From an uncultured Chlamydiae bacterium (GTDB taxonomy: Bacteria; Chlamydiota; Chlamydiia; Chlamydiales; Parachlamydiaceae): a stretch of DNA of 64,000 bases. The notes beneath the pieces were generated by a model. That model saw only the letters and a list, made by a program, of their open reading frames with translations. It was not told the DNA's origin and ran no database searches. The number at the start of each line of letters is the position of its first letter. Position 1 is the first letter of the stretch. Shown here piece by piece: positions 59,906-62,383 of this stretch. The stretch covers positions 1,152,001 through 1,216,000 of the forward strand of contig CAVWGN010000001.1 in the NCBI GenBank assembly GCA_963754655.1, read 5' to 3'. Made by a program: the position numbers and the translations under genes.

Positions 59906-62383
59906 ATGAATATAGGAATTTCAAATCATTATCCTGAACAAGTCAGTGTACCGTTTATTAATGATGCAGAAGTAAATTCTGTGAAAAAGTCCAAGAAAAA
60001 ATGGACAGACGTTGAAAGTGCGCAATTGAGTAATTATATAGAAGAATTTGGAAAGAACTGGAAGAGAATTGCAGAGAACATGCCCGGTACAACTCCTAAA
60101 CAGTGCAAGTATCATTGGATACGTGTATTGAACCCTACGATTAAACATGGAAAATGGACACAAGAGGAAGATGAGCAATTGCAAAACTTTGTGGATCCCA
60201 CTATCAAACACGAAAAATGGACAGAAGACGAAGATGAGCAATTAAAAAACCTTGTAGATCAATATGGAGAAAAGTGGATAGAGATAGCTAAAGAGATGTC
60301 GGGTAGAACGAATATACAGTGTCGTGAACACTATAAGAACACTTTAAATCCCACTATCAAACACGGAAAATGGACAGAAGAAGAAGATGAGCAATTAAAA
60401 AACCTTGTGAATCAACATGGAGAAAAGTGGGCAGAGATAGCCAAAAAGATGCTGGGTAGAACGGATGTTCACTGTCGTAACCGCTATAAGCGGACTTTAA
60501 ACCCCGCTATCAAACGGGGAAAATGGACAGAAAAAGAAGATGAGCAATTGCAAAACCTTGTGGATCAATATGGAGAAAAGTGGGCAAAGATAGCTAAAGA
60601 GATGCCGGGTAGAACGGATATGCAATGCTATCACCACTATAAGACTTTTAATCCCACTATCAAACACGAAAAATGGACAGAAGAAGAAGATGAGCAATTG
60701 AAAAACCTTGTGGATCAACATGGAGAAAATTGGGTAAAAATAGCTAAAGAGATGCCGGGTAGAACGAATATTCAGTGTGGTCAACGCTATAAGAAAAGTT
60801 TAAACCCCGCTATTAAACAAGGAAAATGGACAGAAGGGGAAAATGAGCAATTGAAAAACCTTGTGGATCAATATGGAGAAAAATGGGCAGAGATAGCCAA
60901 AGAGATACCTGGTAGAACAGATATTCAGTGTAGGCAACACTATAAGAAGACTTTAAACCCTATTATCAAACAAGAAAAGTGGACAAAAGAAGAAGATGAG
61001 CAATTGAAAAACCTTGTGGATCAATATGGAGAAAATTGGACAAAAATAGCCAAAGAGATGTCGGGTAGAACAGATCATCAGTGCCGTCAACACTATAAGA
61101 CTTTAAACTCCGCTCTCAAACGAGGAAAATGGACAGAAGAGGAAGATGAGCAATTGAAAAACCTTGTGGATCAATATGGAGAAAATTGGACAAAAATAGC
61201 CAAAGAGATGTCGGGTAGAACAGATCATCAGTGCCGTCAACACTATAAGACTTTAAACTCCGCTCTCAAACGAGGAAAATGGACAGAAGAGGAAGATGAG
61301 CAATTGAAAAACCTTGTGGATCAATATGGAGAAAATTGGACAAAAATAGCCAAAGGGGTGTCGGGTAGAACAGACGATCAGTGCCGTTATCACTATAAGA
61401 CTTTAAACCTCGCTATCAAACACGAAAAATGGACAGAAGAAGAAGATAAGCAATTGAAAAACCTTGTGGATCAATATGGAGAAAAATGGGCAGAGATAGC
61501 CAAAGAGATGTCGGGTAGAACGGATCTTCAGTGTAAACAACGCTATAAGCAGACTTTAAATCCCACTATCAAACACGAAAAATGGACAGAAAAAGAAGAT
61601 GAGCAATTGAAAAACCTTGTGGATCAACATGGAGAAAATTGGGTAAAAATAGCTAAAGAGATGCCGGGTAGAACGAATATGCAATGCAATCACCACTATA
61701 AGAGGACTTTAAATCCCGTTATCAAAAAGGGAAAATGGACAAAAGAAGAAGATGCGCAATTGAAAAACCTTGTGGATCAACATGGAGAAAATTGGACAAA
61801 AATAGCCAAAGAGATGTCGGGTAGAACAGACGATCAATGCCGTTATCAATATAAGACTTTAAACTCCGCTCTCAAACAGGGAAAATGGACAGAAGAAGAA
61901 GATAATCAATTAAAAGAAGCCATTCAACGCATCGGAGAAGGTCAATGGGCCCTCATTGCACAGGAATTTTTTGATAAAACATCTGAGCAATGTGCCTATC
62001 ATTGGGAAATATTGAAGCCAAAATCTAATAAGAAACATTCGAGAAGCGAAACACATTTTCCTATTGAAGAAAGACCCTTAAAAAAATTTAAAAAAAATCA
62101 TTCCCCTCAATTGTTAGATCTTGATGAAAATAAAATTTCTTTAGATAAGCAATCTACTCGAGTAGATCAGTCTCAGTTTGTTTTATTAAATCAAGCAATT
62201 CCTCAACATTTAGAAGAGCCGATAGATGCGATTGTTGTGAGTTCTACTGTTCAGCAATCATTGAACTATGAAGAGGAGCCCTTTATTGCTGAACACGATT
62301 TATCTCCTACAGAGCAGGAGTGGACTTCTATACATGTAGAACAGCAGATGATTTCTAATGAAATTAATGATTTTATCCTTTAA
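59906..62383 (+). CDS. Tandem Myb/SANT-repeat protein (13 full repeats plus one half) with NLS-like clusters and acidic tail; candidate nuclear T3SS effector
   Basis: Repeat consensus KWTEEEDEQLKNLVDQYGE(K/N)WxxIAKEM(S/P)GRTxxQCxxxYKxTLNP matches the eukaryotic Myb repeat. KPKSNKKHSR and RPLKKFKK follow the array. Confidence 0.92.
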   Translation: MNIGISNHYPEQVSVPFINDAEVNSVKKSKKKWTDVESAQLSNYIEEFGKNWKRIAENMPGTTPKQCKYHWIRVLNPTIKHGKWTQEEDEQLQNFVDPTIKHEKWTEDEDEQLKNLVDQYGEKWIEIAKEMSGRTNIQCREHYKNTLNPTIKHGKWTEEEDEQLKNLVNQHGEKWAEIAKKMLGRTDVHCRNRYKRTLNPAIKRGKWTEKEDEQLQNLVDQYGEKWAKIAKEMPGRTDMQCYHHYKTFNPTIKHEKWTEEEDEQLKNLVDQHGENWVKIAKEMPGRTNIQCGQRYKKSLNPAIKQGKWTEGENEQLKNLVDQYGEKWAEIAKEIPGRTDIQCRQHYKKTLNPIIKQEKWTKEEDEQLKNLVDQYGENWTKIAKEMSGRTDHQCRQHYKTLNSALKRGKWTEEEDEQLKNLVDQYGENWTKIAKEMSGRTDHQCRQHYKTLNSALKRGKWTEEEDEQLKNLVDQYGENWTKIAKGVSGRTDDQCRYHYKTLNLAIKHEKWTEEEDKQLKNLVDQYGEKWAEIAKEMSGRTDLQCKQRYKQTLNPTIKHEKWTEKEDEQLKNLVDQHGENWVKIAKEMPGRTNMQCNHHYKRTLNPVIKKGKWTKEEDAQLKNLVDQHGENWTKIAKEMSGRTDDQCRYQYKTLNSALKQGKWTEEEDNQLKEAIQRIGEGQWALIAQEFFDKTSEQCAYHWEILKPKSNKKHSRSETHFPIEERPLKKFKKNHSPQLLDLDENKISLDKQSTRVDQSQFVLLNQAIPQHLEEPIDAIVVSSTVQQSLNYEEEPFIAEHDLSPTEQEWTSIHVEQQMISNEINDFIL
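59993..62023 (+). repeat. Coding tandem array of 150/153-bp units
   Basis: Unit starts 59993, 60146 (half), 60209, 60362, 60515, 60665, 60818, 60971, 61121, 61271, 61421, 61574, 61727, 61877. Confidence 0.95.

Follow-up and report, generated by a model that had tools for sequence, protein, structure and literature searches.

Myb-repeat array proteins amplified in a Parachlamydiaceae genome as candidate nucleus-directed effectors

The open reading frame (ORF) at positions 59906 to 62383 of a 64,000-nucleotide stretch of DNA from an uncultured Chlamydiae bacterium (assembly GCA_963754655.1, contig CAVWGN010000001.1; hereafter, the window) encodes an 825-amino-acid (aa) protein that consists largely of Myb repeats. 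The gene belongs to a lineage-specific, tandemly amplified family that is so far restricted to the genome of the window. We propose, with a probability of roughly 50%, that its members are Myb-array effectors that are secreted, directed to the nucleus, and targeted to DNA sites that differ between paralogues; of this reading, we infer the secretion, the nuclear import, and the DNA binding. The proposal is built on a presumed delivery chassis that is conserved among the paralogues and encloses an array of variable length, the residues of which vary most where c-Myb contacts DNA bases.

The ORF starts with ATG and is uninterrupted by stop codons. Pfam family PF00249 (Myb_DNA-binding) matched it in 13 stretches with an E value of 6.8e-212 (686 bits; cutoff, 24.4), and Tandem Repeats Finder detected a 153-bp period (11.3 copies, 85% matches) at positions 60197 to 61915. 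A first-pass annotation made from the sequence alone had described a leader, a cap repeat, a half repeat, 11 central repeats, and an end repeat; parsing of the translation bore out this layout, with a leader of 31 aa (Table 1). The 11 helix-3 strings given there were found verbatim, as were the basic clusters KPKSNKKHSR and RPLKKFKK; the tail EEEPFIAEHDL...EINDFIL was also present. The cap and end repeat classes differ from the central repeats (class identities, 37 to 55%), and the half repeat was seen in no other family member. The last 60 aa have an isoelectric point (pI) of 4.05 and a net charge of -13.

Judged from their sequences, the repeats are genuinely c-Myb-type Myb domains. The central repeats aligned colinearly with c-Myb R1R2R3 (1h88_C, residues 8 to 153) at 39% identity (E value, 3.8e-34), and a paralogue with three repeats matched the same chain with an E value of 6.9e-31. 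SNAPC4 (7xur_A) also aligned colinearly (E value, 1.5e-34; best sequence match, 1.4e-36). The WTxEED motif of helix 1, the GRTxxQC turn, and the LNPxIKxGxW linker are shared with c-Myb and other 3R-MYB proteins (1h88, 1h89, and 1mse), and the three-repeat paralogues keep the cap-central-end order. However, the chlamydial family is encoded by a bacterium, carries up to 13 repeats rather than 3, has Tyr as the third aromatic residue and one residue fewer per central repeat, and lacks the c-Myb transactivation and negative-regulatory domains. The nearest matches other than the family itself were eukaryote-like metagenomic multi-Myb proteins (33 to 40% identity), followed by eukaryotic 4R/3R Mybs and SNAPC4. 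A donor search with the DNA-binding region of a three-repeat paralogue, in which 109 candidates were scored (including plant MYB3R proteins and protist transcriptomes), yielded nothing above 45% identity outside the genome.

Variation among the central repeats peaks on one face of helix 3. We aligned 55 central repeats from all copies over 51 columns, after dropping one misclassed end repeat. Three regularly spaced aromatic residues, W2, W21 (with one exception), and Y40, run through the alignment, and these scaffold positions, together with L10, I24, R31, and C36, were invariant or almost so. Column entropy was highest at columns 34 (3.39 bits, 13 residue types), 42 (2.55), 37 (2.36), and 38 (2.23); columns 50, 33, 43, 22, 41, and 47 came next at about 1.9 to 2.05 bits, with column 41 ranking ninth. 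According to the HMMER alignment to 1h88_C, columns 34, 37, 38, 41, and 42, the hypervariable helix-3 columns of the central repeats, correspond to K128, R131, E132, H135, and N136 in R2 and to N179, K182, N183, N186, and S187 in R3, respectively. In the available portions of two c-Myb studies (PMC3203581 and PMC2673439), K128, E132, N136, N179, K182, N183, N186, and S187 are base-specific contacts, and R131 and R133 are phosphate contacts. The top four columns by entropy all belong to the five that align with c-Myb base contacts, as the first-pass annotation had proposed for its variable helix-3 sites; the chance of the top 4 of 51 columns all falling in a preset set of 5 is 5/249,900 (hand arithmetic). 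The five columns follow an i, i+3/4 spacing, i.e., they lie on one helical face.

Multinucleotide codon changes, also noted in the first-pass annotation, were concentrated at columns 42 (nine branches), 34 (seven), 38 (five), and 37 (four). Variation is not uniform along the repeat, and the expected entropy peaks at helix-3 sites were recovered, although linker columns 43, 46, 47, 50, and 51 were also fairly variable (1.6 to 2.05 bits). The residues equivalent to K128, K182, and N183 are not conserved but hypervariable: column 37 holds R or K in 29 of 55 repeats (R in 27), and column 38 holds Q in 32 and N in 1. A comparable profile was obtained for the metagenomic arrays, in which 61 repeats from eight proteins gave entropy peaks at columns 34, 38, 42, 41, and 43. 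Because these arrays peak at the same columns, a conserved scaffold with a variable reading face seems to be general to long Myb arrays and not peculiar to the chlamydial family.

The two parts of the repeat differ in their rates of evolution. Pairwise counts over the 55 repeats gave a proportion of synonymous differences (pS) of 0.33 and a pN/pS of 0.51 overall. Parsimony counts on the FastTree topology yielded 134.8 nonsynonymous and 22.2 synonymous changes at the contact columns, against 384.7 and 186.3 elsewhere (odds ratio, 2.96; Fisher P = 2.3e-6), corresponding to omega (dN/dS) values of 1.16 (1.40 against the global dS) and 0.45, respectively. Maximum-likelihood (ML) estimates with the IQ-TREE GY model (fixed topology, scaled branch lengths) were 2.85 to 2.88 for the contact columns (likelihood ratio test [LRT] against 1, P = 0.0015 to 0.0033), 0.56 to 0.61 for all other columns, 0.43 to 0.50 for helices 1 and 2, 0.25 to 0.30 for other helix-3 positions, and 1.0 to 1.2 for the linker, the last not different from 1; the contact-column value comes from five codons and is a noisy estimate. 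The scaffold is clearly under purifying selection (omega, 0.43 to 0.61; LRT against 1, P < 1e-6, at a pS of 0.33), whereas the contact face changes at a rate that is at least neutral and some three to six times that of the scaffold.

The variable arrays sit in a constant frame. The genome (3.16 Mb) consists of two contigs, C1 (3.12 Mb; the window is C1:1152001-1216000) and C2 (35 kb), and contains 82 Myb matches in 15 open frames, which we read as 14 gene copies. Seven copies, one of them split into two frames, lie head to tail at C1:1211906-1228922, with the 825-aa ORF first. Three three-repeat copies are located at 1355 to 1360 kb, single copies at 1633, 2467, and 2584 kb, and a fragment at 2447 kb. 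Shared among the copies are the leader (MNIGISNHY.EQVSVPSIN...KKSKKKW), the cap, the end repeat, the KK...KKFKK element, and the tail motifs EPFIAEHDL and (I/V)N(D/N)F(I/M), which recur across paralogues. Each paralogue carries between 3 and 13 repeats, while the leader, KKFKK, and the tail stay conserved. In 11 aligned paralogues, R713, E715, K726, K727, and K729 of the basic element were invariant and F728 and K730 nearly so, and its lysines (K23, K24, and K26 in tail numbering) were invariant in 10 tails, some of which are just 25 to 28% identical overall.

Leader and tail appear to be private to the family. The leader was found by tblastn at 10 family loci (E values, 1.9e-16 to 8e-7) and nowhere else in the genome at an E value of <0.5, and the tail likewise was not found elsewhere in the genome. 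A tail profile searched against 1.84 billion representative proteins matched five proteins, all of them copies from the genome of the window or one nearly identical to it, and retrieved no relative beyond these; an ESM Atlas search with the tail returned no usable match. Neither leader nor tail was present in any of the Myb proteins of related genomes that were inspected.

Structure prediction gave each repeat confidently as a three-helix Myb domain. An AlphaFold2 model of the first five central repeats, based on a 20-sequence alignment, had a mean predicted local distance difference test score (pLDDT) of 85.7, and each modeled repeat formed three helices (columns 4 to 17, 21 to 27, and 33 to 44, the last being helix 3). 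The top Foldseek matches were SNAPC4 (7xur_A; E value, 8.7e-12) and then c-Myb (1h88_C; E value, 2.1e-10). Pairs of modeled repeats superposed on DNA-bound R2R3 with template modeling (TM) scores of 0.81 (2.2 Å) for 1h89_C, 0.79 (2.4 Å) for 1h8a_C, 0.77 (2.3 Å) for the plant protein WER (6kks_A), and 0.73 (2.4 Å) for 1mse_C; the fit to free R2R3 was worse (1gv2; 0.50, 6.9 Å). Charge is polarized as in Myb DNA-binding domains, with -4.6 on helix 1 and +3.6 on helix 3 plus the linker.

The conserved chassis around a variable array, the element resembling a nuclear localization signal (NLS), and the acidic tail fit effectors that have common delivery, nuclear import, and output but different targets. 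According to the scenario that we favor, a eukaryotic three-repeat Myb gene of the c-Myb/SNAPC4 type would have been acquired, would have gained a bacterial promoter and an export-competent leader, and would then have been amplified in one lineage, both as genes and as internal R2-like repeats (from 1 to 11 central repeats). This amplification would follow the birth-and-death mode of the F-box and BTB effector families of the Parachlamydiaceae, as laid out in the accessible parts of PMC4209131. The leader would target the protein to the chlamydial type III system for delivery to the host cell, and the basic element would act as an NLS. By homology to c-Myb R2/R3 and from the model, the array may then lie along host DNA with successive helices 3 in the major groove. 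The residues at columns 34, 37, 38, 41, and 42 would set the sequence preference, such that each paralogue addresses different host loci, and the shared tail may recruit host transcription or chromatin machinery.

The genome is that of an amoeba-associated chlamydia with type III secretion genes. The named homologues of the neighboring YidC protein were from "Candidatus Protochlamydia phocaeensis" (67%), P. naegleriophila (66%), P. amoebophila (64%), and Parachlamydiaceae metagenome-assembled genomes (MAGs), which places the genome in the Parachlamydiaceae. It encodes the nonflagellar type III export gate HrcV/SctV (914.9 bits; cutoff, 692; C1:2043173) and SctJ (209.5 bits; cutoff, 162; C2:15238); all matches to the type III secretin were below the curated cutoff. 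The sctJ gene (C2:15238-15843) lies on the 35-kb second contig and not on the chromosome contig; contig C2 may represent either a plasmid or a part of the chromosome that was left unplaced.

Several observations weigh against the effector reading, and the first group of them concerns DNA binding itself. Column 34, the equivalent of K128, holds K or R in only 8 of 55 repeats and a hydrophobic residue in 27, and a K128A mutant of c-Myb loses DNA binding, as stated in the available part of PMC3203581, so recognition of the canonical Myb site is unlikely. The whole array is near neutral (net charge, +1; pI 7.6), and its central repeats average +0.64, compared with about +9 for c-Myb R2 (hand count from the 1h88_C alignment). 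The mutual arrangement of the modeled repeats is uncertain (predicted TM score, 0.49), and three repeats together deviated from 1h88_C by 8.8 Å. Moreover, a CDC5L pair from the spliceosome fitted the modeled repeat pairs equally well (7dvq_L; TM score, 0.82, 1.9 Å), as did the CDC5L/CEF1 Myb pairs of 6jui (0.79, 2.1 Å). The charge, the residues at column 34, and the fit to CDC5L would suit proteins that enter the host nucleus but serve there as scaffolds for protein, RNA, or chromatin, i.e., SANT-like histone binders, CDC5-like spliceosome mimics, or decoys for host Myb partners, with a helix-3 face that tracks variable host proteins or is unconstrained. PF00249 covers SANT domains too, and SANT_DAMP1_like matched with an E value of 8.3e-32, with no single stretch passing; the parsimony omega at the contact columns would also be compatible with relaxation. 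We nevertheless consider such scaffolds rather unlikely. By sequence, the proteins are nearest to established DNA-binding Mybs (c-Myb, SNAPC4, B-Myb, plant WER, and Trichomonas Myb2/3) and not to remodeler SANT domains, and the positive charge is retained on helix 3 and the linker. Furthermore, because the other exposed positions of helices 1 and 2 stay constrained, the variable patch appears to be specifically DNA facing.

The second group of contrary observations concerns selection and gene integrity. At the contact columns, the parsimony excess over neutrality was not significant (binomial P = 0.28), and 4 of 100 random five-column sets reached an ML omega of 2.85 or more (median, 0.70). 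Recombination may inflate omega because the repeats are mosaics, the nearest neighbor of 37 of the 55 central repeats residing in a different gene, and the near-neutral linker indicates variability beyond helix 3. Diversifying selection at the contact columns (dN/dS of about 1.2 to 2.9) is accordingly suggestive but not robust; the dN/dS peak that the first-pass annotation expected at helix 3 was recovered as an excess of the contact columns over the rest. Additionally, 5 of the 14 copies are damaged. These features, together with the absence of the family from congeners and the non-adaptive component of birth and death in other Parachlamydiaceae families, would be expected of a horizontally acquired eukaryotic gene that was amplified by unequal recombination and is now decaying, its variable sites being simply the least constrained. 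Drift of this kind is very improbable in our judgment, given the purifying selection on the scaffold, nine intact copies that each retain a full frame, leader, array, basic cluster, and tail, the invariance of the basic cluster even in highly divergent tails, and the lack of proline among the residues listed for the five contact columns.

The five damaged copies differ in the kind of damage. In the third paralogue of the cluster, the tail leaves the reading frame at a short run of G residues (C1:1219225-1219250). The remainder of this tail, with INDFI, is readable in another frame at 79% identity to the tail of the 825-aa protein; a pseudogene, an error in sequencing, or a site of slippage would each account for this. 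Another damaged copy has a shortened tail, one is separated from its own tail, and one is a fragment. The remaining one is interrupted within a central repeat by an IS607-like element, leaving a 191-aa N-terminal half and a 212-aa C-terminal half. This element (C1:1224248-1226013) comprises a 188-aa TnpA-like ORF, judged by eye to be of the serine-recombinase type, and, after it, two TnpB-like ORFs (93 and 333 aa).

Myb domains are sparsely distributed among related bacteria. At an E value of ≤0.001, Myb matches were found in 12 of 60 relatives (10 of 36 within the family), with one to nine matches each. Among same-genus genomes, G001 and G002 had one weak match each and G003 none, compared with 82 matches here. 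At an E value of ≤1e-5, matches occurred in at least 16 of a further 400 genomes sampled from the phylum; the counts from this survey are lower bounds, since no more than 17 candidates were scored for each genome. Its richest genome, G225, had at least 11 matches in frames of at most four repeats, and genome G349 had one 362-aa frame with about five repeats. In G225, which belongs to the same family, five of the matches fall within about 6.6 kb on one strand (C3:75030-81617) in frames of 236 to 281 aa; these genes may have arisen when another Myb family expanded independently and to a smaller extent. Scanning with a peptide pattern across 185,579 species genomes, a collection that may leave out records of the genome of the window itself, gave one weak match, a 112-aa ORF in a Clostridium MAG (38% identity).

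This distribution bears on whether the proteins act inside the bacterium, as nucleoid-associated or regulatory DNA-binding proteins or as modules tied to the surrounding mobile DNA, and are not exported. The conserved, bacterial-type upstream regions of the genes agree with such a role, as does the mobile DNA around them (the IS607-like element in one copy and, between copies 1 and 2, a perfect palindrome of 281 nt). However, the fold is of eukaryotic type, and since Myb is rare in the phylum sample and in congeners, the family is not a core bacterial function. The KK..KKFKK element and the strongly acidic tail have no obvious intrabacterial role, and the leader and tail are unique to the family. 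A function confined to the bacterium is thus very unlikely.

A more specific version of the effector reading, put forward in the first-pass annotation, is that the proteins are Myb-based, programmable DNA readers akin to transcription activator-like (TAL) effectors. Each central repeat would read a short DNA word via columns 34, 37, 38, 41, and 42, successive repeats would track the major groove such that a 13-repeat array would span about 40 to 50 bp, and the paralogues would be injected by the type III system and activate different host amoeba genes through their shared acidic tail. We consider this decidedly unlikely. TAL effector (TALE) repeats are 33 to 35 aa long, have two helices, and carry a two-residue repeat-variable diresidue (RVD) drawn from a small alphabet. 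The chlamydial repeats have about five variable positions each, and their five-column contact signatures comprised 52 distinct types in 55 repeats (39 at columns 34, 37, and 38 alone), those that recurred being recent duplicates. A modular code of the TALE type is unsupported, since the signatures do not draw on a small alphabet that recurs. A Myb repeat would, moreover, read roughly 3 to 4 bp with overlap between neighbors, as extrapolated from c-Myb, whereas a TALE repeat reads 1 bp.

The similarity to TAL effectors of Xanthomonas and Ralstonia is one of outline. Both are multigene families in a bacterium with a type III system, and both show an N-terminal export region, near-identical repeats with hypervariable residues, an NLS-like element, and an acidic C terminus, although for the chlamydial proteins the functions of these parts are presumptive. 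The leader, variable repeats, basic cluster, and acidic tail of the proposed TALE-like layout were all recovered; the fold is unrelated, with a 51-aa three-helix Myb unit in place of the TALE repeat. Membership in the TAL effector family was rejected on the 50/51-aa Myb repeats, the unrelated fold, and the absence of a small specificity alphabet, and none of the 25 Pfam matches listed was to a TAL family.

Other multi-Myb proteins offer partial parallels. SNAPC4/SNAP190, a subunit of the snRNA-activating complex with 4.5 Myb repeats (7xur and 7zwc), is likewise a multirepeat array in which R-Y replaces R-W in one repeat. Its repeats, however, are fixed and divergent and act in a multisubunit eukaryotic complex without a variable-length array family, and the overall superposition was poor (root mean square deviation [RMSD], 17 Å). 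Schizosaccharomyces pombe Reb1 on Ter DNA (5eyb) was a Foldseek match (E value, 1.8e-7) and may set a precedent for the placement of several Myb-type modules along a single DNA. Reb1 has more than two such modules; its four are heterogeneous, it is eukaryotic without a variable-length family, and its fit was poor (RMSD, 14.7 Å).

The metagenomic arrays P0008 to P0021, annotated as "hypothetical protein," lie on short contigs, were parsed into 4 to 10 repeats each, and share PPQDED...KKPRL N termini. They differ from the chlamydial proteins in having Trp as the third aromatic residue and other N termini and in lacking the leader, KKFKK, and the tail. The earlier statement that eukaryotic Mybs have one to four repeats holds for the typical case but not for these eukaryote-like proteins.

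The closest analogues in mode of evolution are found within the Parachlamydiaceae. In the accessible text of Domman et al. (PMC4209131), eukaryote-like-domain families such as the F-box and BTB effectors expand by lineage-specific tandem duplication and birth and death with disparate copy numbers, a heterologous type III assay suggested that they are effectors, and the copy-number patterns are attributed in part to non-adaptive drift. The Myb-array family matches this pattern in its lineage-specific expansion, its broken copies, and its sharp copy-number disparity with congeners. It differs in its Myb domain, in an expansion that is also internal, as repeat arrays, and in variation on a DNA-reading face. 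The family thus combines known kinds, namely, Myb domains, eukaryote-like chlamydial effector families, and repeat-array nucleomodulins, among which TAL effectors are listed in the available part of a review (PMC7819608).

The genomic context of the cluster is bacterial. Upstream of the 825-aa ORF are a sigma-70-like site (TTGATA-17-TAATAT, 59832 to 59860) and, 7 nt ahead of the ATG, a purine-rich stretch (AGAGAGAG). The 140 to 150 nt upstream of the paralogues align with one another, including a site resembling TTGGAA-17-TAATAT and purine-rich sequence ahead of the ATG, and a blastn search with these 140 nt from one paralogue gave the regions upstream of other family members as the best matches. 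Promoter-like sites were not enriched in the scan (12, compared with 16.3 expected from shuffles), and a search for RNA sequencing runs with the whole ORF listed none that contained it. The GC content of positions 60001 to 62000 (0.388) is identical to that of the chromosome (0.388). Eukaryotic DNA or contamination was rejected on the basis of the 3.12-Mb contig, the flanking YidC and Ser/Thr kinase genes, the genome-typical GC content, the lack of introns, and the bacterial-type upstream region. The gap between these two flanking genes measures 18,516 bp here, where it holds the Myb cluster, compared with 2,774 bp in G002 and 1,416 bp in G003, in both of which the cluster is absent from the site.

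Table 1. Positions of the 825-aa ORF, its parts, and flanking features in the window
Feature	Position	Strand	Remarks
YidC insertase, 838 aa, left syntenic anchor	56717..59233	-	Pfam 60KD_IMP, E value 1.1e-55
Conserved upstream region	59766..59905	+	Sigma-70-like site and purine-rich stretch
Whole ORF, Myb-repeat array protein, first in tandem cluster	59906..62383	+	825 aa; Pfam
Leader, aa 1-31 (MNIGISNHYPEQVSVPFINDAEVNSVKKSKKK), candidate secretion signal	59906..59998	+	Basic run at end; no hydrophobic core
Cap repeat, aa 32-82 (51 aa), R1 position	59999..60151	+	Third aromatic residue Trp (HW)
Half repeat, aa 83-103 (21 aa), KWTQEEDEQLQNFVDPTIKHE	60152..60214	+	Helix 1 and linker only
Eleven central R2-like repeats, 50/51 aa each, aa 104-659	60215..61882	+	Third aromatic residue Tyr
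End repeat, aa 660-706 (QRIGEGQW...EQCAYHW), R3 position	61883..62023	+	Sequence parse
Basic clusters KSNKKHSR ... RPLKKFKK, aa 704-731	62015..62098	+	Bipartite-NLS-like, 15-residue spacer, recognized by eye
Acidic-hydrophobic tail, last 60 aa (EEEPFIAEHDL...EINDFIL)	62201..62380	+	Candidate activation or host-factor-binding module
Second paralogue, start (547 aa in full, runs past window end)	63669..64000	+	ORF, Pfam

Other features were observed near the cluster. The palindrome between Myb genes 1 and 2 (62611 to 63214) is a perfect 281-nt inverted repeat (100% complementary, 42-nt spacer) that yields mirror-image 65-aa ORFs at 62694 to 62891 (-) and 62934 to 63131 (+); each arm has a match to Acido-Lenti-1 (RF01687) of 36.4 bits, just below the gathering score of 37. 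A 522-aa ORF at 52929 to 54494 (+), in a stretch with a GC content of 0.31 to 0.34, contains a eukaryotic RhoGEF domain (PF00621; E value, 1.6e-8) and is a candidate for another host-directed protein. The ORF that follows it (54985 to 56472, 496 aa) had no Pfam match. The genes for DnaA (51248 to 52603, -) and YidC both fall in an 8-kb stretch immediately upstream of the Myb cluster, and no GC-skew reversal is visible within the window.

Few bacterial proteins, to our knowledge, both enter the nucleus of the host and read its DNA directly; the one modular case that is well understood is that of the TAL effectors. Full-text searches gave no description of bacterial Myb arrays, although Myb domains might be listed in the supplements to Domman et al. 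2014 or to chlamydial pangenome papers. The main text of Domman et al. (PMC4209131) has no occurrence of "Myb," the sole occurrence that a term search returned from the nucleomodulin review (PMC7819608) is the host factor MYB30 in a reference title, and a passing sentence in the available text of PMC10579323 states that Myb-like transcription factors occur in Legionella and Chlamydiota.

The family has been amplified twice over from a eukaryotic transcription-factor domain, as 14 gene copies and as up to 13 repeats per gene. Read cautiously, it extends the birth-and-death effector families of the Parachlamydiaceae to a DNA-binding domain. Should the improbable Myb code of TALE type prove true, it would be a second, independently evolved bacterial means of programmable host-gene targeting and a possible engineering scaffold. 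If the proteins bind host DNA, they would be the first Myb-type bacterial nucleomodulins that we have found described, about 55 natural variants of one scaffold would be available for studying the specificity of the Myb recognition helix, and chlamydial symbionts would reprogram the transcription of their amoeba hosts directly.

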